NCBI GenBank assembly: GCA_031459535.1
Contig: JAVKIJ010000004.1
Coordinates: 79-64,078 of the forward strand
Direction: 5' to 3'
DNA: 64,000 bases
DNA from: Candidatus Fervidifonticultor quintus
GTDB lineage: Bacteria > Sysuimicrobiota > Sysuimicrobiia > Sysuimicrobiales > Humicultoraceae
In this document: one piece after another, positions 48,256 to 62,932 of the stretch
Numbering within the stretch: position 1 is the stretch's first letter
How the letters are laid out: every line of letters begins with the position of its first letter
Made by a program: the position numbers and the translations under genes
The notes under the pieces: generated by a model
The model's database searches: none
Seen by the model: the letters and a program-made list of their open reading frames with translations, nothing else
Told to the model about the DNA's origin: nothing

Positions 48256-49549
48256 ATGCGCACCGCTCCAGTCATCGGCATTCTGTTGGCCTTCGCGTTC
48301 TCCTCGAGCCTGCTGTTGGGTCGGGCTCATGCTCAGTACGAGGATCTGATTGCCCGGGTCAAACCCGGTGTCGTCCTGGTCCAGGCCAGGCACGTGCGCG
48401 GCGCAGAGGGCCACGGGTCCGGATTTGTCTACGACCCTTCCGGGTTCATCCTCACCAACCAACACGTGGTCGCCGGGGCCCGGAGCATCACCGTGGTGCT
48501 CTCCGACGGCCGGAAGCTACCGGCGACCGTCGTGGACTACGTCCGCCGCATGGACTTTGCGTGCCCCCCCGCGGGTGGAGCGATGGATTGACGCGGCGAT
48601 CCTGAAAGTCGAGGCCGACGGCCTGCCCACGGTCCCGCTGGGGGACTCGGCGGCCCTGCGCCAGGGCCAGGAGGTGCTCGTCCTGGGCTACCCGGGCGGC
48701 GTCGGGACTGAAGAAGTGAGCGTCACGCGGGGCATCGTGGGCGCCCTCCGGGCGGGGTGGTTCCAGACCGACGCGACCATGCTCCCGGGCAACAGTGGCG
48801 GACCCGTGGTCGACCGGGACGGCCGGGTCGTCGGCCTCGCCACGTTCGGGACGGGCCAGTTCTTCAAGATCGGCGGCGCCGTGGCGATCAACAGCATCCG
48901 ACGCATGGCCGAGATTGCGCTGACCCAGGGCGCGCCGCGGGCACAAGAATTCCACGTGACCGGGCTCGGATACCTCAGCCCCATCGCCGTGGGGCGGAAG
49001 CGTCTTACCCGGGTGACCTATGACCCGGGCGCGACCGGCGGGCGAGGGGGGATCTACGAGTACACCTCCGAGATCACCCAGGTGGTCAACCTGGCCGGGG
49101 AGGTGCTCTATACCATCAGGGACAGCGACGGCGACGAATACCAGAACTTCCTCGACGCCGAAGGGCTCGTCCGCGTGGCGACCTCGATGAAGTCCTGGAA
49201 GTTCTCCTACCCGAGGCCACGCGTGCTGCTGGCGTTCCCCGTCTGCCCTGGCGTTGGCTGGAAGAACCAGTGGCTCCAGCAGAACCTCTCCAGCGGAGCC
49301 GTCTACCGCGTCGAGGAGAGCTCCAGGATCGAGAGCACGGGTGAATCAGTCTCCGTCCCTGCGGGGAACTTCGCGCAGGCCCTGGTGGAGCGAGGCAGCT
49401 TCGAGTGGGTGGACACCAAGGGGGGCCAGGTCGTCTGGCGGTCCGTCGCGGCCCACTGGTGGGCGGAGGGCGCCGGCGTCGTGCGCTCCACGGAAGAGCG
49501 CGAGGGAACCCGGGAGCGATGGGTGTCTGAGCTCGTGTCCCTGAAGTAG
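48256..49549 (+). pseudogene. trypsin-like (S1C/HtrA-like) serine protease with a non-PDZ C-terminal domain, interrupted by a frameshift
   Basis: GGAGGG then ATG 48256, signal peptide, His region LTNQHVV in frame 1 (stop at 48591). Asp region IDAAILKV and Ser region GNSGGPVV are in frame 2. A C7 run at 48564-48570 lies at the frame junction. Confidence 0.75.
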
Positions 49550-49585
49550 CCAGCGGCACGGGGCAGGAGAAATCGAGAGAGATAG
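49483..49585 (+). repeat. direct repeat copy A (3' end of the protease gene plus ~36 nt downstream)
   Basis: Aligns with 50336-50435. The first 66 nt are 60/66 identical by hand count. The tail shares AAATCGAGAGAG..ATAG, with small indels. Confidence 0.85.
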
Positions 49586-49601
49586 CGTCCTGCTAGGATC
49601 C

Positions 49602-50114
49602 TCAAGTTAGGTGCTCGATCTTGAGACCGAGGAAGCGGCGGAAGCCCCGGTCTTCGGTGAGCAGCACGCGGACGCCGTGTTCCCGGCACAGCGCAGCAAT
49701 TTGGGCGTCGAATGCCAGGTTCCCCGCGGCGCGCGCCTCGTACGCCACCTCCCGGAACAGCGGCCAGTACCGCTCCCCGGGAGACAAGATCTGGAGGCTG
49801 GGACTGGCGACCAGAGCCGCAAGGGCGTCGAGCGCTTCGTTCAGGGGCGAGGGCGGGCGGAGGATCCGCGGGTGGGTGACGACGCGCACGAATTCGCCAA
49901 GACAGACTACCGGTATCGCCCACGTCGAGGGTCCCTCGGCCAGTTCCGCCAGGCGCCGGAGCGCCCGGGTGTGGAGCGGGAGTTCCTCACGGTGGGCGTA
50001 AACCAGAATGTTGGTGTCGACGGCGATCAGCGGCGTTCCTCCATCACTTCCAGGAGCGCGTCGCGGTCGGCGATGTCGGCGGCGGGTGGTCCCTCCCCGC
50101 GGCGGACCGGCCAC
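49602..50114 (-). CDS. vapC: PIN-domain toxin VapC
   Basis: LIAVDTNILVY...GEFVRVVTHP...AFDAQIAALCREHGVRVLLTEDRGF. The true start is probably near 50045 (no canonical start codon found there); the track start at 50114 would overlap vapB by 88 nt. Confidence 0.8.
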   Translation of the reverse strand: MAGPPRGGTTRRRHRRPRRAPGSDGGTPLIAVDTNILVYAHREELPLHTRALRRLAELAEGPSTWAIPVVCLGEFVRVVTHPRILRPPSPLNEALDALAALVASPSLQILSPGERYWPLFREVAYEARAAGNLAFDAQIAALCREHGVRVLLTEDRGFRRFLGLKIEHLT

Positions 50115-50263
50115 CGCAGGCGATAGGGGCGATGACCCCGGCGCCGGGTCAGGAAGAGCCTCAGCGCTTCCTCGAAGAGCGCGGTGAGGGTGCGGCCTTC
50201 CTGAGCCGCCCTCTTCTTGGCCTCGCGCAGGAGGCTGTCATTGAGGTTGAGCGTGGTGCGCAC
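50027..50263 (-). CDS. vapB: VapB-type antitoxin
   Basis: 78 aa. MRTTLNLNDSLLREAKKRAAQEGRTLTALFEEALRLFL is a typical type II antitoxin N-terminus. GTG start, located directly upstream of vapC. Confidence 0.8.
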   Translation of the reverse strand: MRTTLNLNDSLLREAKKRAAQEGRTLTALFEEALRLFLTRRRGHRPYRLRWPVRRGEGPPAADIADRDALLEVMEERR

Positions 50264-50298
50264 CGGTGCGTACCTTCGGGCTCATGGGGTCACATACA

Positions 50299-50327
50299 AA
50301 CATACTCATTCCCTCATATATCTGCAA
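50299..50327 (-). promoter_or_regulatory. candidate vapBC promoter (TTGCAG-17-TATGTT) in an AT-rich patch
   Basis: Reverse strand reads TTGCAG, a 17-nt spacer, then TATGTT, ending 36 nt upstream of the vapB GTG. Local composition is much more AT-rich than the surroundings. Confidence 0.35.
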
Positions 50328-50335
50328 GCCATCGC

Positions 50336-50435
50336 GCGATCCACGGAAGAGCGCGACGGAACCCGGGAGCGAGGGGTCTCTGAGCTCGTCGCCCTGAAGT
50401 ACGCGGCGGCCCGGGCAGAAATCGAGAGAGAATAG
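50336..50435 (+). repeat. direct repeat copy B (orphan copy of the protease 3' end)
   Basis: Encodes RSTEERDGTRERGVSELVALK versus RSTEEREGTRERWVSELVSLK in copy A. The stop TAG is changed to TAC. Confidence 0.85.
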
Positions 50436-53944: not shown

Positions 53945-55424
53945 GGCGCCTCTCCCTGACGCCTATCATACCCGAAACACACTCGCGTGGGCCACCGCGA
54001 CCGTCGCCGCCGGCCTGGCGCTGGGCCTGTTCGCCGGCGCGGCCGCGCACTCAAGCGCCGGCGCACACCCCGGCGCCCCCGCGCCCCGTCCCAACGCCGT
54101 GCTCGCCGCCGATCACTGGGCCTACCCGGCCCTCTACAGGCTGGCCGCCGCCGGGCTGGCACCTCTGTGGGCGGCCTCGGCCCGACCGCTGCCTCGGCTC
54201 GAGGTCGCGCGCATGGTGGCCGAAGCGCTCGAGCGCGCGGCGCAGTCCCAAACTGCTGGCGCGCCACGCCGGGACTTCCTGCAGGCCGACCTGGCCGCGC
54301 TGCGCGACGAGTTCGCCGCCGAGCTGCGCCTGCTCGAGGAGGCGCGCGCCGGCCGGCAGCCCTCCGGTGCGGTGGGCGCGGCTCTGGGCGCCGCCGGCAC
54401 GGTACGCGCGGCCGGCGGCACCGCCCCGCACTTCGTGCGACACGAGAGCAGCGGGTTCGATCTCGACCGCGCCTACCTTGGTGCGCGCGCTGGTGACGTC
54501 GCCGTCCAGGCGGGCCGCGATCTCCTCTGGTGGGGGCCGGCCTTCCGAGGCGCGTTCCTGCTCTCCGACAACGCCGGGCCGCTCGACTACCTGAGCCTGT
54601 CGGCGACCTCCGGCCGGTTCCGCATGGTCAAGCTGGTCGCGCCGCTGGCCGACCCCGAACGGTACCTCTACGGACTGCGCGTGGACTGGCAGGCGCGCGA
54701 CGACCTGCGGATCGGCTTCGGCGAGGTGATGGCGGCCTCCGGCGGGCCCTCGGTGCTCTATGCGCTGAACGTCGTTCCAGGCATCGCCTATGCCATCGCC
54801 CACTATGTGCGCACCGGCTCCAACGACAACTACAGCTTCGCCCTCGACGCCGACTGGCGACCGCGGCCCGGGACGCTGTTCTACGGCGAGCTGTACGTGG
54901 ACGACCTGGCCGTCTTCGACCCCTACAACCCCTTCCCGCACCGCATCGCGGGTACCGTCGGCCTGTACCTGGCCGACCCGTTCGGCGACGGCCGCACCAG
55001 CCTGCGCTTCGAACACAGCCGGGCGAGCAACTGGATCTACGCGGCGCCCGCGCCGGGAGCGCACACCCTCCGCGGGGCCCGGGCGGTCGGCCACTGGTGC
55101 GCGCCCGACTGCGAGTTGTGGTCGGCGGCGATGATCCGGCAGCTGTCCCCGCGCTCCGGCGTGCTGGTCGGTTACGACCTGATCCGCAAGGGCGAGGGCC
55201 GGCTGGGTGAGACCTGGACTGACCCCGACGACGCGTGGCGGCGCTACTACCTGTCCGGTGTCGTCGAGACCACGCACGCCCTGCGCGCTGCGGCCTGGTG
55301 GTCCGCGGGCGACCTGCGCGCGACCCTGACCGCGGTCTGGAGTACCGCGTCCAACGCGGGGCACGTCGCCCGCGCGACGCGTCAGGGTTGGTTCGTTCTG
55401 TGGGAGGCGACCTATGGGTTCTGA
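53943..55424 (+). CDS. Wzi-like capsule-assembly / outer-membrane beta-barrel protein (putative)
   Basis: Signal peptide TLAWATATVAAGLALGLFAGAAAHS. LLWWGPAFRGAFLLSDNAGPLDYLSL resembles the Wzi family. Alternating beta-strand pattern and terminal aromatic (YGF). The start shares CCATGG with the divergent Uma2 start. Confidence 0.5.
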   Translation: MAPLPDAYHTRNTLAWATATVAAGLALGLFAGAAAHSSAGAHPGAPAPRPNAVLAADHWAYPALYRLAAAGLAPLWAASARPLPRLEVARMVAEALERAAQSQTAGAPRRDFLQADLAALRDEFAAELRLLEEARAGRQPSGAVGAALGAAGTVRAAGGTAPHFVRHESSGFDLDRAYLGARAGDVAVQAGRDLLWWGPAFRGAFLLSDNAGPLDYLSLSATSGRFRMVKLVAPLADPERYLYGLRVDWQARDDLRIGFGEVMAASGGPSVLYALNVVPGIAYAIAHYVRTGSNDNYSFALDADWRPRPGTLFYGELYVDDLAVFDPYNPFPHRIAGTVGLYLADPFGDGRTSLRFEHSRASNWIYAAPAPGAHTLRGARAVGHWCAPDCELWSAAMIRQLSPRSGVLVGYDLIRKGEGRLGETWTDPDDAWRRYYLSGVVETTHALRAAAWWSAGDLRATLTAVWSTASNAGHVARATRQGWFVLWEATYGF

Positions 55425-57633
55425 CCGCACCGACGTCGAGCGGCTCGGCGGGCCACCGGCCCCCCAGCCCGAGGCCGAGCCCGGCCTGCGCGACTACCTG
55501 GACGTGCTGCGCCGGCGCTGGTGGCTGCTGGTGGTCACCACCGGCGTGGCGTTCTCGGTGGCGCTGGGCCTGAGCCTGGGTATGGCGCCGGTCTACCGCG
55601 GCCAGGCCACCGTGGTGGTCGACCGCAGCGGCTCGTCGTTCGCCATGACCGCCGACCTGACGGGCATCAGTCAGCAGGCCTTCGTGGACACCCTGGCCGA
55701 GCTGGTCAAGAGCCGGGCCGTGGCCGAGCAGGCCCTCGAGCGTCTGGGTGTCCCCGCGGAGGCCCGGCCCGCCGTGCTGCGCACGCTCCAGGCCGGGCTG
55801 CGGGTGCGCCGCGTGCGCAACGCCGACCTCATCGTCATCGAGGCCGAAGGCGCCACGCCCCAGGACGCGGCCCTCTACACCAACGCCGTGGCCGAGGCCC
55901 TGCTCGACTGGCACGTGGAATCGCGCCGCAAGCAGGCCGCAGCCGGCCGACAGTTCATCGAGGGCCAGGTCGAGGCCGTGGGCCGCGAGCTGCGCGCCGC
56001 TGAGGACGCGCTGGCCCGCTACAAGGTAGGGGCCGGGCAGGTCTCGCTGTCGGAGCAGAGCACGCTGGCGGTGACCAAGCTGGCCGAGTTCGAAGCGCAG
56101 CGGCGCGCGGTGGCTACCGAGCGCCGGGGGGTCGAAGCCAGTCTGCGCGAAGCCCGCGCGGCGCTGGTGCGTCAGGCGCCCACCGTGCCCGCGTCGTTTG
56201 TCGAGGGTGAAGACCCCGTGGTCGCCCAGGTCCGCGGCGACCTGGCGAGGCTCGAGCTGGAGCTGGTGGGCCTGCAGCGCCAGTTCACCGACCGGCACCC
56301 GCAGGTGCTCGCGACCCGGGCGCGCATCGAAGAGGCCAAGGCCCGCCTGCGCCGGCAGGCCGGCCGCACGCTGCTCTCGCAGGAGTTCGCGGCCAATCCG
56401 CTGCGCTCCGACCTGGCCGGCCAGATCATCAAACTCGAGGTCGAGCGCCAGGCGCTGCAGGCGCGCGAGGCCGCGCTGGCCGCGGTGGTGGGCCAGTACG
56501 CCCGCGACGTCCGCGACCTGCCGCCCCGCGAGGTGGCCCTGGCGCGCCTGACCCGCGACCTCAAGGTGGCCGAGGAGACCTACCTCCTGCTCTCGCAGAA
56601 ACTGCAAGAAGCCCGCATTGCCGAGTCGTCCGTGGTGGGCGACCTGCGCATCGTTGACCGCGCGGCGCCACCCGAGGTGCCGGTGCGGCCGCGGCCCGTG
56701 CGCAACATGCTGTTCGGCGCGCTGCTGGGTTTGGTCGTGGGGCTGGGAGGCGCGTTCCTGGCCGAGGCGCTCGACGACACGTTCCGCACGCCCGACGAGG
56801 CGGCGCAGTTGCTGGGCCTACCGCTGCTGGCCGCGATCCCGCGCACGAACCCACCTCCGGCCGAGGCGTCAACCAATAACGCCCGTCCGGGCCGCGGCAA
56901 CGGCCGGCGAACCAGGGGCGGCGGTCAGGCCGCGGCGATGCCGCTCATGACCGCCGAGCACCGCCGCTCGCCGTTCGCCGAGGCCTTCCGCCACCTGCGT
57001 ACCAACCTCGACTACCTGAGCCCCGACCGGCCGCTGCGGACGGTGCTCGTCACCAGCACCGGCCCCGAGGAAGGCAAGAGCACCGTCACCGCCAACCTGG
57101 CTGCGGCTCTGGCGCTGGCTGGCCGCCGCGTGTGGGTGGTCGAGGCCGACCTGCGCAAGCCCGCGATGTCCTGGGCGTTCCAGCCTGCGGGTACCCGCGG
57201 GCTCTCCGACCTGCTGATCGTAGGGGCCGACCCCGCCGCCGCACTCGCCCCCACGCAGATCGAGAACCTGTCGTTCGTCCCCGCCGGCACCCCGCCGCCC
57301 GACCCCGCGGAGCTGCTCGGCAGCCAGCGCATGCGGGCGTTCCTGGCCGCCGCCCGCGAGCAGGCCGACGCCGTGATCGTGGATGCGACTCCCGTGCTGC
57401 CGGTGACCGACGCCGTGGCCCTGGCCCCGCACGTGGACGGGGTGCTGCTGGTGGTCGACCTCGCTCGCACGCCCCGCGACGCCGCCCGCCGCGCCGCCGC
57501 GCAGTTGCGGGCCGTGGGCGCGAGGGTGGCGGGGGTGGTCGTGAACAACGTGCCGGCCAACGGGCGGGGGTATTACTACTACCGCTACTACCCGTACGCG
57601 CGCGAAGAAGCGGTGGCCGGTGCGGACGGTTGA
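55414..57633 (+). CDS. wzc: polysaccharide co-polymerase with C-terminal BY-kinase (Wzc/GumC-like, PCP-2a)
   Basis: Wzz-like N-terminus, long coiled-coil region, second TM, Walker A STGPEEGKST, A' VWVVEADLRKP, B VIVDATPVLPVTD, and a C-terminal Tyr cluster GRGYYYYRYYPY. Confidence 0.9.
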   Translation: MGSDRTDVERLGGPPAPQPEAEPGLRDYLDVLRRRWWLLVVTTGVAFSVALGLSLGMAPVYRGQATVVVDRSGSSFAMTADLTGISQQAFVDTLAELVKSRAVAEQALERLGVPAEARPAVLRTLQAGLRVRRVRNADLIVIEAEGATPQDAALYTNAVAEALLDWHVESRRKQAAAGRQFIEGQVEAVGRELRAAEDALARYKVGAGQVSLSEQSTLAVTKLAEFEAQRRAVATERRGVEASLREARAALVRQAPTVPASFVEGEDPVVAQVRGDLARLELELVGLQRQFTDRHPQVLATRARIEEAKARLRRQAGRTLLSQEFAANPLRSDLAGQIIKLEVERQALQAREAALAAVVGQYARDVRDLPPREVALARLTRDLKVAEETYLLLSQKLQEARIAESSVVGDLRIVDRAAPPEVPVRPRPVRNMLFGALLGLVVGLGGAFLAEALDDTFRTPDEAAQLLGLPLLAAIPRTNPPPAEASTNNARPGRGNGRRTRGGGQAAAMPLMTAEHRRSPFAEAFRHLRTNLDYLSPDRPLRTVLVTSTGPEEGKSTVTANLAAALALAGRRVWVVEADLRKPAMSWAFQPAGTRGLSDLLIVGADPAAALAPTQIENLSFVPAGTPPPDPAELLGSQRMRAFLAAAREQADAVIVDATPVLPVTDAVALAPHVDGVLLVVDLARTPRDAARRAAAQLRAVGARVAGVVVNNVPANGRGYYYYRYYPYAREEAVAGADG

Positions 57634-57639
57634 GGTGCG

Positions 57640-57887
57640 ATGGTTACCCTGCCGCTGACCCGTTCAGCTGGTCACCGAGGGAGGCCGGAGGGTCAACCTT
57701 CCCAGGCCCTGCGCGAGCTGTGGGCGTTCCGCCACACCGTGCTGGCCTTCGCCGAGCGGGACGTGCGGCTCAAGTACAAGCAGACGGTCCTCGGCGTGGC
57801 CTGGGCCGTTATCCAACCGCTGGCCTTCATGGACATCTCCTTGCTGACGTTCGGACGGCTGGCCAAGCTGCCGGGAGGCGGGGTGCC
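57640..57887 (+). pseudogene. 5' stub of an ABC-2 (Wzm-type) permease gene
   Basis: Coupled to wzc (TGA 57631, GAGG, ATG 57640). ALRELWAFRHTVLAFAERDVRLKYKQTVLGVAWAVIQPLAFM matches the N-terminus of the intact wzm at 58860. Homology ends at 57887. Confidence 0.75.
57703..57887 (+). repeat. direct repeat copy 1 (wzm 5' region)
   Basis: Gapless alignment to 58938-59122, 151/185 identical by hand count. Confidence 0.85.
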
Positions 57888-57957
57888 AAAGGCCGATGGA
57901 CGTGGGAGGGTAGACCTCAAAGTCAAGGGCGTGTCGCGGCGGCTGCGTAGGCGGTTG

Positions 57958-58302
57958 CTACAGGAAATCCACCGCGTAGGCGGGAAGCCCTGCCGGTTGC
58001 TCCGCCGCGTAGGCCGCCAGGGCCTCGGCGATCGGCGCGAACCGGTCCGCAGGCAGTGTGTAGGGCACAATGAGCACGCCGAAGTGGGGACGCCGGTCGT
58101 TGAAAAACTGAATCGTGAGGCGGATGAAATCGTCACGATTTCGCGTGACAAGACACCGGCCGTCCCGGGCGGCGCGTTCGAGTTGCTCGTGGTCGGAAAG
58201 TCCCTCCGCCCCGACCTCATGCGCACTGACGGCATCCGCGCCGTGAGCGCGCAGCAGCTCGGCTATCCGCTGGCTGAGGTCTTCGTCGAGGTAGTATTTC
58301 AA
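57958..58302 (-). CDS. DUF5615-family (PIN-like/Mut7-C-like) putative toxin
   Basis: [28 protein letters not shown]...LVTRNRDDF is typical of DUF5615. The TTG start overlaps the antitoxin stop (TTGA). Confidence 0.8.
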
Positions 58303-58718
58303 CGGCCTTCGGCGGCCAGCGAGGGGTGGCGTTCGGCGAGTCCTTGCGGGCTCCAGGAGTCGTTGCGGGCGATCAGCCGGTCGATCTCCTCCTTATACGC
58401 GGCGTAGTAGCCGAACGCCGCCCGCAGGTGGGCTTCCGAGAGCCAGTGGTAGGTCTGGCGCAGGCGGCCGCGGTCCCGGTCGAGGCTTTTGTAGGTGGCG
58501 ATGATCTCCCAGACATCGAGGCCGGTGCCGGCCACGCGGGCCCGCCGCCCGAAGGGTCCGTCGGCAAAGAAAATCCCGGGGCACCGCCGCATCTTGACAG
58601 CCTCCACGAGCAGCTCGTTGGCGACGGAAGAGAAGTCGCGCCCCGTCGCCTCGGCCAGGGATTGGATCTCCCTGGCGACGTCGCCGGGAATGCGCAGGCT
58701 CTTCTGCACTGTGGGCAT
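58299..58718 (-). CDS. DUF433-domain putative antitoxin with an RHH-like N-terminus
   Basis: ATG 58718 after [33 protein letters not shown] is the DUF433 core. The N-terminal [31 protein letters not shown] is ribbon-helix-helix-like. Confidence 0.8.
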
Positions 58719-58753
58719 CGATGTCGCTCCTTTTGTGCGATGTCCGCAATTGT

Positions 58754-58782
58754 AGAATACGGTGGAACGCATTGTAAGTCAA
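58754..58782 (-). promoter_or_regulatory. TA-module promoter (TTGACT-17-TATTCT) with flanking AACGCAT direct repeats
   Basis: Reverse strand reads TTGACT (58782-58777), a 17-nt spacer, then TATTCT (58759-58754). AACGCAT occurs at 58766-58772 and 58781-58787 (+ strand), overlapping the -35. Confidence 0.45.
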
Positions 58783-58859
58783 CGCATGGGATTGTCTCTC
58801 GAACGATTACTCGAAAATATTGGCGTAACAATATCAGCCCTGCATGAGGTGGAAGCGCG

Positions 58860-59717
58860 GTGGGCGCCGACGGAACCGCCCTGCAGGTAACCAAACTCGA
58901 ACTCGTCATCGAGGGCGGCCCACGTCCCCGCCTGGGGCAAGCCCTGCGGGAACTGTGGGCGTTCCGCCACACCGTCCTGGCCTTCGCCGAGCGCGACGTG
59001 CGCGTGAAGTACAAGCAGACCGTCCTGGGCGTGCTGTGGGCCATTCTCCAACCCCTGGCTTTCATGGTGATCTTCTCCGTGGCCTTTGGGCGCCTGGCCA
59101 AAGTGCCGGGCGGCGGTGCCCCCTACGCGGCGTTCTCGCTGTCCGTCCTGGTCCCCTGGACGTTCCTGCAAACGGCGGTGACCTTCGGCGCCAACTCCCT
59201 GCTGATGGATTCCGCCATCATCCGGAAGGTTTACCTTCCGCGGGAGGTGCCGGTCCTGGGCGCGGTCGCCCACGCGGGGGTGGACCTCGCCATTGGCGTC
59301 GGTCTCTTCGCCCTCCTGGCGCCGGTGGTCGGGGCGCGCTTCTCGCCCACCTGGCTGCTGGTCCCGATCCTGGCCGTGCTGCTAGGGCTGCTGGCGGTCG
59401 CGGTGGCTCTGCCGCTGGCCGCCCTCAACGTCTACTACCGGGACTTCCGCTACGCGCTGCCGTTTGCGCTGCAACTGTGGCTGTTTGCCTCGCCGGTCGC
59501 CTACCCGCTGTCCGTCGTGCCCGCGCCGTGGCGCGAGCTCTACGTGACGCTGAACCCGGCCGCCGGCCTCCTGGACGCCTTCCGGCGGGTGCTGGCGATG
59601 GGGGCGTGGCCCGACCCGGGCCTGCTGGCGGTCAGCCTGGCGGGCACGGCGGTGCTTCTGTGGGCCGGCTACTGGATCTTCAAGGGCCTCGAGCCGAACT
59701 TCGCCGACGTGGTGTAG
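58860..59717 (+). CDS. wzm: ABC-2 type polysaccharide export permease
   Basis: 285 aa, 6 TM, conserved N-terminal ELW.FR.....A.RD...KYKQTVLG..W....P motif of Wzm/TagG/KpsM-like permeases. Confidence 0.88.
   Translation: MGADGTALQVTKLELVIEGGPRPRLGQALRELWAFRHTVLAFAERDVRVKYKQTVLGVLWAILQPLAFMVIFSVAFGRLAKVPGGGAPYAAFSLSVLVPWTFLQTAVTFGANSLLMDSAIIRKVYLPREVPVLGAVAHAGVDLAIGVGLFALLAPVVGARFSPTWLLVPILAVLLGLLAVAVALPLAALNVYYRDFRYALPFALQLWLFASPVAYPLSVVPAPWRELYVTLNPAAGLLDAFRRVLAMGAWPDPGLLAVSLAGTAVLLWAGYWIFKGLEPNFADVV
58938..59122 (+). repeat. direct repeat copy 2 (inside the intact wzm)
   Basis: See copy 1. 16 of the 27 differing codons are synonymous by hand count. Confidence 0.85.
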
Positions 59718-59720
59718 GCC

Positions 59721-60977
59721 GTGGCCTACGCGGTGCGCCTTGAAGAGGTCACCAAACGGTACAGCGGGGGCGGCCCGCGCTACGCCTCGCTGCGCCACGA
59801 ACTCTCCGAAGGTGTCCGGCGCCTGGCGGCGCGGTTGCGCGGGCTCAGGCCCGAGCCCCGAGGCACGCTCGCCCTGGACAGGGTTTCCTTCGAGGTGGAA
59901 GAGGGGGAGGCCTTCGCCATCATCGGCCCCAACGGGGCGGGTAAGACCACCGCCCTCAAGCTCGTCTCCCGGATCAGCTACCCAACCGGGGGCCGGGTTC
60001 GGGTCCGGGGAAGGGTGGCGGCCCTCATCGAGGTCGGCTCTGGCGTCCACCCCGAACTCACCGCGAGGGAGAACATCTGGCTCTACGGCCAGATCCTGGG
60101 GATGAGTCGGGCGGAGATCCGCCGGCGGTTCGACGAGATCGTGGAGTTCGCCGAACTCGCCCACGTCCTGGACACGCCGGTGAAGATGTACTCCTCGGGG
60201 ATGCAGCTTCGCCTGGGCTTCGCTATCGCGAGCCACCTGGAGCCCGACATCTTCGTGGTGGACGAAGCCCTGGCTGTGGGCGACGCTGGCTTCCAGGCCA
60301 AGTGCGTGGAGCGGATGACGAAGCTGGTGGGGGAGGGGAGAACCTTGCTTTTCGTATCCCACAACCTCTCGGCGGTCGAAGCCGTCTGCACTCGAGGGCT
60401 GTTCCTGCTCGACGGACAGGTTCGAAAGGTGGGCAGAGTTCGGCAAGCGCTGCGTGCCTACATGAATTGGGTGGACGCGGAGCATCAGGCGCGCCTGGGA
60501 GAGGAGATCGCAGTGCGACCCTCCACTCTCCTCCACTTTGAAGGCATCTGCTGTTATGGCGCCGACGGAGGCGAACGCTACGCGTTTCGCACCGGCGAGG
60601 ACGTTGAGCTTCGCCTCCGCTTCAGGCCTCTCGCTCCTCTACGACGCCCATATGTAAGCCTGGGCATCACTGACGGACGCCCCGGGAACCTGATCCTGTG
60701 CTCAATGCTTGTGGACGGAGGAGCTCCAGAGTGTGTTGAGGACCCCTTCGAGGCCCGGCTCAAAATGCGGAGCCTCCCGCTCCTGCCCCGTGTGTACCAG
60801 CTCTGGTGCTCTGTTCGGACGGAGCATGCGTTTGGAGACGTGTTCGACTGGCAACCTGTGGGCACTTTCCGCGTGACCGAGCCGCCATCACTCTCCGGTC
60901 CGGCGGCTGTTGCGCACACGTCGACGGATGGTCCCGTACATGTGGACCACTACTGGGAGGTCGTCCCGTGCCGGTAG
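59721..60977 (+). CDS. wzt: polysaccharide ABC exporter ATP-binding protein with a C-terminal glycan-binding-type domain
   Basis: Walker A GPNGAGKTT, signature YSSGMQLRL, Walker B IFVVDEA. An extra ~170-aa beta-rich C-terminal domain sits in the position of Wzt_C. Confidence 0.9.
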   Translation: MAYAVRLEEVTKRYSGGGPRYASLRHELSEGVRRLAARLRGLRPEPRGTLALDRVSFEVEEGEAFAIIGPNGAGKTTALKLVSRISYPTGGRVRVRGRVAALIEVGSGVHPELTARENIWLYGQILGMSRAEIRRRFDEIVEFAELAHVLDTPVKMYSSGMQLRLGFAIASHLEPDIFVVDEALAVGDAGFQAKCVERMTKLVGEGRTLLFVSHNLSAVEAVCTRGLFLLDGQVRKVGRVRQALRAYMNWVDAEHQARLGEEIAVRPSTLLHFEGICCYGADGGERYAFRTGEDVELRLRFRPLAPLRRPYVSLGITDGRPGNLILCSMLVDGGAPECVEDPFEARLKMRSLPLLPRVYQLWCSVRTEHAFGDVFDWQPVGTFRVTEPPSLSGPAAVAHTSTDGPVHVDHYWEVVPCR

Positions 60978-61798
60978 CGCCACCGGATACCCCCCCGAGG
61001 TTAGACCCTGTCTTTCTGACGGAAGACGACTTGGAGGATCTGGCATCTTTCACAGGATTGAGTCGCGACGCCTGCCTGGAGCGAGTGCGCGCGTTCTCAA
61101 GCGAGGAATTGGCCGAGGCCTGGCGGAGAGCCGACCCGAAGACGCCCGAGGAGATTGTCACCTTCTATGGTTCAACCGATCTCTACATCTGGGAACTCAT
61201 GCAGTGGCATGCGAGCCCGGCACGTCTTCCCTACTGGCAGGCACTCTCGAGACTCGTCCACCACTGGCCAGCGCAGGCCGGGTGGCGCCGCGTGCTGGAC
61301 TTTGGTTGCGGGGTGGGGACCGACGCCCTGTACCTTGCGACGCAGGGGTACGACGTGACCCTGGTAGACGTTCCAGGTCCCACCTTCGAGTTCGCCAAGC
61401 ATCGATTTCGACGCCGGGGCCTTTCGGCCCGGTTCATCGAGTCTCGCTCTCCGCTCTTCTTGCCAGACAGAGTCTACGATGTTGTGGTCTGCTTTGACGT
61501 CTTTGAACATCTTCCCGACCCTCTTACGGTGGCTCGAAAGCTTGTGGATTCATTGCGGATCGGAGGCCTGATGTTGCAGCAAGGAAACTTCGGAGACGAA
61601 GGGCACCACCCGTGCCACCTTCGCAGTGGGATCAAGCAGTTTGGCGGATTGCGCTGGCAGATCCATCTCGCGGGGCTGGGTCTACGCGGTGCAGACGGCG
61701 CCATGGTCTACCGGAAGGCAAGTGGAGTAGAGCGTCTCACTCAGCGGGCCCGGTTTATCGTGTGGCGTGGCACGCGATTGTGGATCATACGAACATGA
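60968..61798 (+). CDS. class I SAM-dependent methyltransferase
   Basis: GTG 60968 chosen. RVLDFGCGVGTDALYLATQGYDVTLVD motif I and DVVVCFDVFEHL motif. The region is lower in GC. Confidence 0.8.
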   Translation: MPVAPPDTPPRLDPVFLTEDDLEDLASFTGLSRDACLERVRAFSSEELAEAWRRADPKTPEEIVTFYGSTDLYIWELMQWHASPARLPYWQALSRLVHHWPAQAGWRRVLDFGCGVGTDALYLATQGYDVTLVDVPGPTFEFAKHRFRRRGLSARFIESRSPLFLPDRVYDVVVCFDVFEHLPDPLTVARKLVDSLRIGGLMLQQGNFGDEGHHPCHLRSGIKQFGGLRWQIHLAGLGLRGADGAMVYRKASGVERLTQRARFIVWRGTRLWIIRT

Positions 61799-61869
61799 CG
61801 GAAAGCCTTTCTCTCGTTTCAATCGTCGTACCCACCCGCAAGCGCGCGATCTTACTCCGTGATCCCTGA
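61795..61869 (+). pseudogene. 24-codon stub of a GT2 glycosyltransferase gene
   Basis: ATGA-coupled to the methyltransferase. MTESLSLVSIVVPTRKRAILL is a canonical GT2 N-terminus but is stopped after 24 codons, followed by ~180 nt of non-coding DNA. Confidence 0.5.
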
Positions 61870-62050
61870 CTGCCTTCTGAGCCTTGTCGCTCACCTGCTA
61901 GGGCCTTGGTTGTGCGCGTTGCGATGCCCCAATACTTGTGTGTAACAGCCGCGAAGCAGGGTCTAGCAGGCGGCCACGAGTGAAAAGTTCCTACTGGGGC
62001 TCGGCCGCCTCAGTTTCAATGTGAGGGCTATAGGGTTCGCACCCCAGACA

Positions 62051-62932
62051 ATGCCGAGTGACCTACCATTCGCGTCGGTAGTGGTGCCCACCAGGAACCG
62101 GGCGGCCGGACTTCTGCGACGATGCCTGAAGAGCTTGCTCGCTCAAGACTATCCTCCCGATCGATACGAGGTTATCGTCATCAACGACGGATCGACGGAC
62201 AACACCTCTGAGGTGGTCGCGCGTTTCGCCGGAAGAGAGACCCCTCCCGTCCGCTACGTGCCCCAGCCGCACGGTGGCCTGAACAGCGCCCGGAACGCCG
62301 GGATTGCTGCAGCCCGGGGTGACCCCATCTGCTTCGTCGACGACGACGTGGAAGCCCCGCCAGGATGGCTCTCAGCCCTTGTATCGGGGGCACTTCGTCA
62401 CCCGGAGGCGGGCTGCTTCGGAGGCCCCATCCGGCTCCGCCTGGAGGGAACGCCTCCTCGCCTGCGCGGCCATGAACCGCTCGGCGAGAGCGAGCTGAAT
62501 CTGCGGGACGCGGAGGGAGAGGACGCTCTCGTCTGGGGAGCGAACATGGCTGTTCGCCGCAGCGCCCTCGCACAGGTCGGCGCCTTCGACGAAGAGCTCC
62601 CGATCTCCGGTGACGAGCAGGAGTGGGAGGAGCGGCTGCTCGACGCAGGGGGCAAGATCCGCTACATCGCAGACGCGTGGCTATGGCACCTCCGAACGCA
62701 GGAGGACCTCAGGTTGACAACCATGATGCGGCGGCGCTTCATTCGTGGAATGCATCGCATTTTTTACCTTCGGAAGCGCGGCCTCCCGCTGCCGACGGTC
62801 CGCGGCGAGTTGATCTCGGCGCTGCGCGTGGTGGGTCACGCCGTCAGGAGACGGTGTGCCTGGGGGCTGCTGGCTGCTGCGGGGCATGTCGGAGCCGCTT
62901 GGGCACCTGTTGTGGAGGGACGGAGACGTTGA
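62051..62932 (+). CDS. family 2 glycosyltransferase
   Basis: ASVVVPTRNRAAGL...EVIVINDGSTDNT...CFVDDDV (DxD). Start 62051 (ATG) or 62021 (GTG). Confidence 0.85.
   Translation: MPSDLPFASVVVPTRNRAAGLLRRCLKSLLAQDYPPDRYEVIVINDGSTDNTSEVVARFAGRETPPVRYVPQPHGGLNSARNAGIAAARGDPICFVDDDVEAPPGWLSALVSGALRHPEAGCFGGPIRLRLEGTPPRLRGHEPLGESELNLRDAEGEDALVWGANMAVRRSALAQVGAFDEELPISGDEQEWEERLLDAGGKIRYIADAWLWHLRTQEDLRLTTMMRRRFIRGMHRIFYLRKRGLPLPTVRGELISALRVVGHAVRRRCAWGLLAAAGHVGAAWAPVVEGRRR

Follow-up and report, generated by a model that had tools for sequence, protein, structure and literature searches.

Phage 21 and e14 integrate into a protein gene of Escherichia coli, icd, and carry a replacement for the gene end. 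Restriction–modification units of Helicobacter can reportedly insert with a long target duplication, as Nobusato, Uchiyama, Ohashi and Kobayashi are said to have described in 2000 in Gene 259:99. Homology-facilitated illegitimate recombination (HFIR) is an established process, known from Acinetobacter, Pseudomonas stutzeri, Streptococcus pneumoniae and conjugation in E. coli (PMC3240628), and it has been proposed for comparable displacement scars of type VI secretion system (T6SS) effector–immunity and Rhs loci by Kirchberger et al. 2017, who described the sequential displacement of T6SS effector–immunity modules and the orphan 3' ends of Rhs and contact-dependent inhibition (CDI) loci (PMC5361080). 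Pairs of a PIN-like toxin and a COG2442 (DUF433) antitoxin are an established predicted type II toxin–antitoxin (TA) family (Makarova et al. 2009, PMC2701414; Synechocystis catalogue, PMC4963859), and both the TA family and the type of scar considered below are already known. Here we analysed a 64,000-nucleotide stretch of Candidatus Fervidifonticultor quintus (the window), in which such a TA pair lies between two diverged copies of the 5' end of wzm, a permease gene of a polysaccharide-export operon. A patch of about 2.5 kb (57888 to about 60.1–60.4 kb) probably replaced resident DNA at this place and left an HFIR-type scar in a mosaic export locus, the diverged direct repeat being one gene end in two alleles, the resident and the incoming.

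The window lies on contig C73 of a metagenome-assembled genome (MAG) of 138 contigs and 3.1 Mb (88.9% complete, 68.7% G+C, 5.2% estimated contamination), whose nearest named relatives are Armatimonadota MAGs. Three outside contigs carry much of the comparison: L036 and L037, both from one NCBI Armatimonadota MAG (GCA_031459465.1), and the Logan contig L038, a strain variant 99.5% identical to the window. The open reading frames (ORFs) run in the order wzc, an ORF from ATG 57640, two overlapping ORFs on the minus strand, wzm and wzt (59721–60977), and the parts of the locus are as follows.

55414–57633, plus strand: wzc, a tyrosine autokinase/co-polymerase of 739 aa with the Pfam Wzz, GNVR and P-loop domains
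57640–57887, plus strand: wzm stub, 83 codons (248 nt) from the start of the resident wzm, which was of L037 type
57703–57887, plus strand: direct-repeat copy 1, the part of the stub that aligns without gaps
57888–57957, no strand: unique 70 nt between the joint 57887/57888 and the toxin stop, where all wzm alleles lack homology
57958–58302, minus strand: toxin gene, a DUF5615 PIN-like nuclease of 114 aa with a TTG start
58299–58718, minus strand: antitoxin gene, 139 aa, with a weakly ribbon-helix-helix (RHH)-like N-terminus and a DUF433 domain
58719–58859, no strand: divergent, AT-rich intergenic region of 141 nt (48% G+C)
58860–59717, plus strand: intact wzm, an ABC-2 permease of 285 aa, L036-type allele (PF01061, 52 bits, residues 40–244)
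58938–59122, plus strand: direct-repeat copy 2, in intact wzm
59721–60420, plus strand: nucleotide-binding half of wzt (Pfam ABC_tran, residues 52–184), the end of the L036-like patch
60421–61400, plus strand: C-terminal (glycan-recognition-type) domain of wzt and start of the methyltransferase gene, resident L037-type

Set beside HFIR, the patch has one end anchored in homology (the wzt ATPase region) and the other joined without it (in wzm), and it carried in foreign TA genes without a recombinase of their own; unlike the HFIR experiments, this case is read from a natural scar and was not observed, and its joint lies inside a region that the donor also carried, so that the outcome is not a plain deletion but a stub and a partial duplication. 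As in the displacement of T6SS and Rhs modules, a new allele and its linked genes displace the resident and leave a remnant beside them, in a locus with conserved and variable parts; in contrast to those loci, the remnant is a 5' stub and not a 3' orphan or an immunity gene, there is no array of successive stubs, and the locus is a glycan exporter whose hitch-hiker is a type II TA pair. The likeness to insertion with long target duplication lies in a small selfish unit without transposase between target direct repeats of about 100 bp or more, but in that process the repeats come from one target, whereas tree and topology test (below) indicate different alleles here. With phage 21 and e14 in icd the locus shares repeats that are old and new versions of a gene end with mostly synonymous differences, and a displaced fragment kept as a pseudogene; it differs in having no integrase or attachment (att) core and in that the replacement comprises a whole gene and half of the next. 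This is an ordinary kind of scar, unusually well resolved in that both parental allele types are identifiable, and it indicates that a TA pair can enter the middle of an operon without transposase or integrase, riding on homologous DNA, at the cost of a dead stub.

An earlier sequence-only reading had aligned 57703–57887 with 58938–59122 without gaps, at 151 of 185 identical positions. MAFFT, a repeat search and a direct count all reproduced this repeat, which the first two delimited as 57703–57881 and 58938–59116 (83% identity, spacing 1235, no gaps); no exact match between the copies is longer than about 23 nt. A recount over 62 codons (186 nt) gave 28 differing codons, 17 synonymous and 11 non-synonymous, in place of the 27 and 16 given before, the last codon being the sole difference, and eight of the first nine differing codons are synonymous, as had been stated. 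The 35 base differences over these codons fall 7/5/23 on the three codon positions, and the NG86 estimates are dN 0.103, dS 0.652 and dN/dS 0.157. The similarity is also far above chance, the stub protein matching the intact copy at E = 1.6e-31. A weaker, gapped similarity of the copies reaches back to the stub's ATG, and therefore the whole of 57640–57887 is a wzm 5' end. On its other side, all wzm alleles in the alignment lose homology to the stub at 57887, the point at which the earlier reading had ended it. The downstream copy is, as described there, the 5' part of an intact 285-aa wzm, with wzt adjoining downstream, so that a full-length ABC2_membrane domain stands next to the Wzt ATPase.

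Between the repeats lie the two TA ORFs only, and no transposase, integrase or flanking inverted repeat was found at the locus, in agreement with the sequence-only reading. An att-type or integron-like core at the repeat ends was rejected, as the alignment has no identical core there, and with it a transposon, insertion sequence (IS) or integrative element as the carrier. For annotation, the direct repeat here is neither an att site nor a target duplication.

The allele affinities of the two copies carry the argument. Among 94 genomes of the order, the best match of the stub is the intact copy; the larger protein collection holds closer alleles, above all the wzm of L037, to which the stub is 88.8% identical over 57666–57887; at the protein level 54 of 62 residues agree. 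Within the core of 186 nt, the stub reaches 89% identity with L037, against 81–82% with the intact copy. In a maximum-likelihood tree stub and L037 form a clade with support 90/99, and forcing the stub together with the intact copy costs 24.5 log-likelihood units and is rejected by the approximately unbiased (AU) test (p = 0.0015), which also rejects a clade of stub, intact copy and L036 (p = 0.008). Stub and intact copy thus come from different lineages, and these data reject a duplication in situ unless the stub was later converted over its whole length. The AU test and the stub's closeness to L037 also speak against an insertion with long target duplication, in which both repeats should come from one target. 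Intact wzm as the incoming gene and the stub as the remainder of the resident gene is the best reading of these relationships. The sequence-only reading had held that the copies diverged as working genes before they were juxtaposed and had argued against a recent in-situ or transposase-type target duplication; dN/dS, tree and AU test all uphold it. In none of the relatives do tandem wzm genes occur, nor does a stub that lacks the TA pair, and the arrangement that the earlier reading had set against itself, stub plus full wzm with no TA pair, was likewise not seen in them.

Consistently with this origin, intact wzm is 91.6% identical to L036 (dS 0.25) and 74% to L037 (dS 0.74), and the ATPase half of wzt shows a dS of 0.44 to L036 and of 0.82–0.84 to L037. 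From about 60420 onwards the C-terminal part of wzt and the methyltransferase gene are 87–94% identical to L037 and have no homology to L036. The stub has a synonymous divergence of 0.32 from L037, and the C-terminal part of wzt one of 0.45; the L036-type segment of about 2.5 kb with the TA pair is thus bordered on either side by L037-type sequence of similar age. Window 58385–59716 is 94% identical to L036, a contig that starts inside the antitoxin gene (antitoxin 96–100%, intergenic region 90–95%, wzm 89–96%). A three-way sliding comparison found wzm (58860–59700) and the wzt ATPase half (59880–60360) to be L036-like, at 0.85–0.96, with mostly lower identity to L037 (0.66–0.85 in wzm, 0.79–0.94 in the ATPase half), and placed a zone of homologous crossover at about 60060–60420, near the boundary between the ATPase and C-terminal domains of wzt. 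The locus thus shows the two unlike ends of HFIR, a left joint without homology (57887/57888) and a right switch in homologous wzt sequence. That the TA cassette is wedged into wzm, as the sequence-only reading had put it, understates the change: a complete wzm and the ATPase half of wzt came along in one patch of about 2.5 kb, which took the place of resident DNA. For annotation the wzm–wzt genes here are a three-parent mosaic, and for the evolution of glycan loci they indicate that the generic transporter parts, Wzm and the ATPase of Wzt, were replaced independently of the glycan-specific domain of Wzt, the breakpoint falling close to the border between the domains.

Some further observations concern the same genes. 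At window 60350–61800, G+C at third codon positions (GC3) drops from about 0.89 to about 0.69 where the ATPase domain of wzt gives way to the C-terminal domain, and it stays low through the methyltransferase gene; the drop at about 60350 is also present in the wzt of L037 and is therefore a property of the domain, not evidence for the event. This lower-GC module of wzt C-terminus and methyltransferase is common to distant hosts. Homology to L037 breaks at 61400–62060 and resumes at 62063 at 75% only. In L036 (477–2230) the near-identical wzm has a 1-nt N-terminal insertion, so that it is called as 247 aa, and a frameshifted TylF-like methyltransferase gene lies between wzm and wzt.

Upstream, wzc closes a conserved export block, NusG-wza-wzi-wzc, that is common to three relatives at 83–90% nucleotide identity (wzc itself 90% to G005 and L047, 83% to L049), and homology stops at the wzc stop, at 57633–57635. 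What follows wzc differs: in G005/L047 a truncated PIN gene on the opposite strand and then a Wzx/Wzy-type cluster, in L049 an unrelated wzm-wzt, and in G012 glycosyltransferases. As the conserved flank ends at the wzc stop in the relatives, the stub is the first element of the variable region. Its native coupling to wzc (TGA 57631–57633, then GAGG, then the stub's ATG 57640, a gap of 6 nt), which the sequence-only reading had proposed, is plausible for the same reason. L037 has the gene order wza-wzc-ugd-epimerase-wzm-wzt-methyltransferase-GT2-GT2 and is collinear with the window. An exact look-up of the window's Wzc found no independent contig across the joint between stub and TA pair. The truncated PIN toxin gene of the sister species (L016, that is G005:C77, 679–930; L047, 12452–12679) lies a few hundred bases past the wzc stop, at the same conserved/variable boundary, with a methyltransferase fragment next to it.

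The stub appears to be in early decay. Alone it has no Pfam match. Read in a shifted frame it gives LVTEGGRRVNL, which matches the N-termini of P0004 and P0026, and the N-termini of alleles related to the stub read ..TRLELV.EGGRRVNLP..; its codons 9–21 (57664–57702; 13 codons) would thus be out of frame between a deletion of two nucleotides and a deletion of one. Five replacements are specific to the stub, at sites invariant or nearly so in six relatives, and together with the two putative compensating deletions they point to the beginning of decay. The frame of the stub remains open for 255 codons (57640–58407) and crosses the toxin gene and some of the antitoxin gene in antisense. We rejected this 255-aa ORF as a real gene because it continues the frame of the stub into high-GC DNA, antisense to the TA genes; it is likely a high-GC artefact and at risk of being mis-annotated as a gene.

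The TA genes between the copies are a standard type II PIN-like/DUF433 module, intact and predicted to be active. The toxin matches PF18480 at 68.3 bits (cut-off 23.8), PIN_10 at 28.7 (cut-off 26.2) and Mut7-C at 23.8 (cut-off 23.3), and it retains all positions that are at least 95% conserved in 100 homologues, including D6, E7, D8, D23, D37, D57 and D58; the acidic residues of the PIN-like active site are thus kept, and their catalytic role is predicted. The antitoxin matches PDB 2GA1 (DUF433) by phmmer with E = 9.2e-6 over residues 41–120, and scores 20.6 bits against Pfam DUF433, under the cut-off of 23.6, which the orthologue in G003 passes at 24.8. Rfam, PADLOC and NCBIfam gave no significant matches. 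Like the described PIN-like/COG2442 pairs, the two small genes overlap with the antitoxin first, the antitoxin is 2GA1-like and the toxin is a DUF5615/PIN_10/Mut7-C-type PIN-like protein; unlike them, the antitoxin has an extra, weakly RHH-like N-terminal segment. The minus-strand DUF5615/DUF433 pair overlapping at a TTGA, which the sequence-only reading had recognised, is borne out, the antitoxin stop overlapping the start of the co-oriented toxin gene at 58299–58302. The antitoxin start is corrected from 58772 to ATG 58718, a position supported by its G003 homologue as well as by the L038 gene call, and a Shine–Dalgarno sequence, AAAGGAGCG, stands upstream of this ATG.

In the intergenic region, which is 92% identical in L036, the promoter-like site reported before was found again on the minus strand (−35 TTGACT at 58782–58777, a 17-nt spacer, −10 TATTCT at 58759–58754), as were its two AACGCAT repeats (58766–58772 and 58781–58787), which form a candidate operator at which the TA pair is probably autoregulated. 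The Shine–Dalgarno sequence of wzm, GAGGTGG, is at 58846–58852, and wzm may use the imported intergenic region as its promoter; transcription of the operon from upstream would run antisense through the TA genes. The earlier description of the whole insert of about 1 kb as low in G+C did not hold: the toxin gene has 64.9% and the antitoxin gene 68.6% against 68.7% for the genome, and only the 141-nt intergenic region is low. With the TA pair near the genome mean, G+C and GC3 were dropped as markers of foreign origin.

The pair is single-copy in the window's genome and has homologues at 70–83% identity in several phyla. A toxin homologue search returned nothing above 83% identity besides the window's own, and a metagenome scan nothing above 75%. 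G003 holds the same TA pair in another context, at 76% nucleotide identity over the two ORFs only, and the 70-nt flank and the intergenic region find matches in L038 and L036 only. The flank (57888–57957) matches nothing elsewhere in the genome or in the fetched loci except L038, where it is identical, and it is probably of donor origin. In G003, the glycan locus L018 (G003:C83, 1–5500) is densely packed with TA modules, namely PIN/AbrB, two DUF433/DUF5615 pairs and a PemK pair; 57 nt separate the DUF433/DUF5615 pair with 76% identity to that of the window from a GDP-mannose dehydratase fragment (134 aa) truncated at its 5' end.

From these elements we infer both the direction of the exchange and its mechanism. 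At the start, an L037-type wzm-wzt-methyltransferase module would have stood directly after wzc. Linear DNA from a related lineage would then have entered the cell, a piece comprising the 70-nt flank, the DUF5615 toxin, the DUF433 antitoxin, the divergent promoter region, an L036-type wzm and the ATPase half of wzt. At its right end, homologous recombination would have taken place within the conserved ATPase region of wzt, at about 60.1–60.4 kb, and its left end, which had no homologue, would have been joined illegitimately in the resident wzm after codon 83 (57887/57888). The resident DNA between the joints would thereby have been replaced, leaving the stub still coupled to wzc. Since the donor brought a complete wzm with its own Shine–Dalgarno sequence and promoter region, export would have stayed functional and a joint inside wzm would have been tolerated; a joint inside wzc would not. 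DprA is encoded in the window's genome and ComEC in 16 of 16 high-quality genomes of the family; these genes are no proof of competence, and DNA uptake by the host is plausible but unproven. The most likely role of the TA pair is that of a selfish stabiliser, which would keep the patch from being lost easily. As generic transporter parts were exchanged and the glycan-specific Wzt domain was kept, it is the TA pair rather than the transporter allele that may favour retention of the patch.

Several points weigh against this history. The left joint is known from one MAG assembly, and L038, the only independent contig, extends no further than 9 nt into the stub. On the right, the boundary can be placed within a zone (60.06–60.42 kb) but not at a point, and L036 and L037 are proxies for the parents, both from one MAG. 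The donor sequence left of the toxin was not found in the toxin homologue search or the metagenome scan; any microhomology at the joint depends on that missing flank, and the stub may travel with the cassette. ComEC was not found in this 89%-complete MAG. The excess of replacements in the stub lacks significance (five non-synonymous and five synonymous changes, compared with two and five in L037; Fisher p = 0.62), and the argument from relaxed selection was dropped although the counts lie in the expected direction.

One of the two copies could have arrived with the cassette if a circle bearing the TA pair and a 5' wzm fragment as a portable homology arm had entered the resident wzm by a single, Campbell-type crossover and thereby duplicated the arm. 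The geometry of truncated copy, cargo and intact copy fits, the same scar recurs at three TA cassettes in the genome, and the block of TA pair, intergenic region and wzm is 92–100% shared with L036, whose downstream background differs. However, the likeness to L036 does not end with the repeat but continues for about 1.3 kb more, over the whole of wzm and the wzt ATPase half, and the L037-like stub and wzt C-terminus flank the block at similar divergence; a Campbell event therefore needs a resident locus that was already mosaic at exactly that place. Moreover, neither copy switches allele type internally, and neither the toxin homologue search nor the metagenome scan turned up a circular form or an arm-bearing cassette elsewhere. 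We regard a single crossover as unlikely, and as less parsimonious than replacement.

Because the genome is a MAG of many contigs with some estimated contamination, two co-occurring strains or species might have been joined in assembly, in which case stub and TA pair would not be true neighbours. Strain variants are indeed present in the sample (L038 carries L036-type SNPs), two contigs end in this region (L038 9 nt inside the stub, L036 inside the antitoxin gene), and divergence is similar, at 82–85%, in all three scars. De Bruijn chimeras, though, originate where two sequences share k-mers, and what they produce is a hybrid gene rather than a joint without homology: 57888–57957 is unique in the genome and the copies share no long exact match. 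L038 spans the joint and is identical over 57879–57957, and both flanks of a second scar, around vapBC, are collinear with a relative that has the empty site. An assembly chimera is thus very unlikely. We consider it highly improbable that the repeat arose in place, whether by a TA insertion with a long target duplication (about 250 bp) that later diverged, for which the restriction–modification units of Helicobacter would be the model, or from old tandem wzm paralogues of which the first was truncated. The intact copy is the stub's best match within the order, but broader databases hold the closer L037 allele, the AU test rejects sisterhood, and a dN/dS of 0.16 is too low had one copy been dead throughout the divergence; tandem wzm genes and TA-free stubs are absent from the relatives. 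Replacement of resident DNA by an incoming patch remains the reading that we prefer.

The same kind of scar recurs in this genome. At window 49483–50435, a vapBC cassette on the minus strand (PIN 49602–50114, VapB 50027–50263) lies between diverged copies of the 3' end of a protease gene. The copies, 49483–49585 and 50336–50435, comprise the last 66 nt of the gene and about 36 nt more; 59 of the 66 nt are identical, with five of the seven differences at third positions. L049 is an empty site for this scar, with the sequence present once and no cassette. Genome self-comparison found a further scar, with mazEF, on contig C95 (49978–51162, locus L070), in the order 43-codon stub of a helicase gene, 3' fragment of a transposase, mazE (RHH), mazF (PemK) and an intact gene for a 1712-aa DEAD/DEAH-type helicase; the transposase fragment has no Pfam match and reads as IS630-like. 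Its repeat is identical at 104 of 129 positions, 18 of the 25 differences are at third positions, and dN/dS is 0.09; no empty site or closer allele was found for it, the relatives being too distant. Among repeats 200–4000 bp apart, the self-comparison returned six above 80% identity: three bracket TA cassettes, two are paralogous gene ends, and the sixth is on contig C31.

These recurrences permit a more tentative proposal, doubtful at present, that TA pairs may be recombinase-free mobile units, which would use an adjacent conserved gene as a homology arm, spread by DNA uptake and one-sided recombination, and by addiction fix otherwise neutral allele replacements, with stubs as their footprints. 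If so, what addiction fixed here would be a generic wzm and wzt ATPase half, with the glycan-specific domain of wzt retained, and three footprints in one 3.1-Mb genome would mark the route as common. The recurrence of the scar at two further TA cassettes makes such TA-assisted allele replacement testable. As a minor observation on related export modules, the JGI contigs L039 (4041–4346 and 7302–7952) and L040 carry a wzm that is 86% identical and further gene remnants at their module borders, among them a 101-aa epimerase fragment and a 113-aa RmlD fragment, together with an unassigned 99-aa ORF on the minus strand immediately upstream of wzm.

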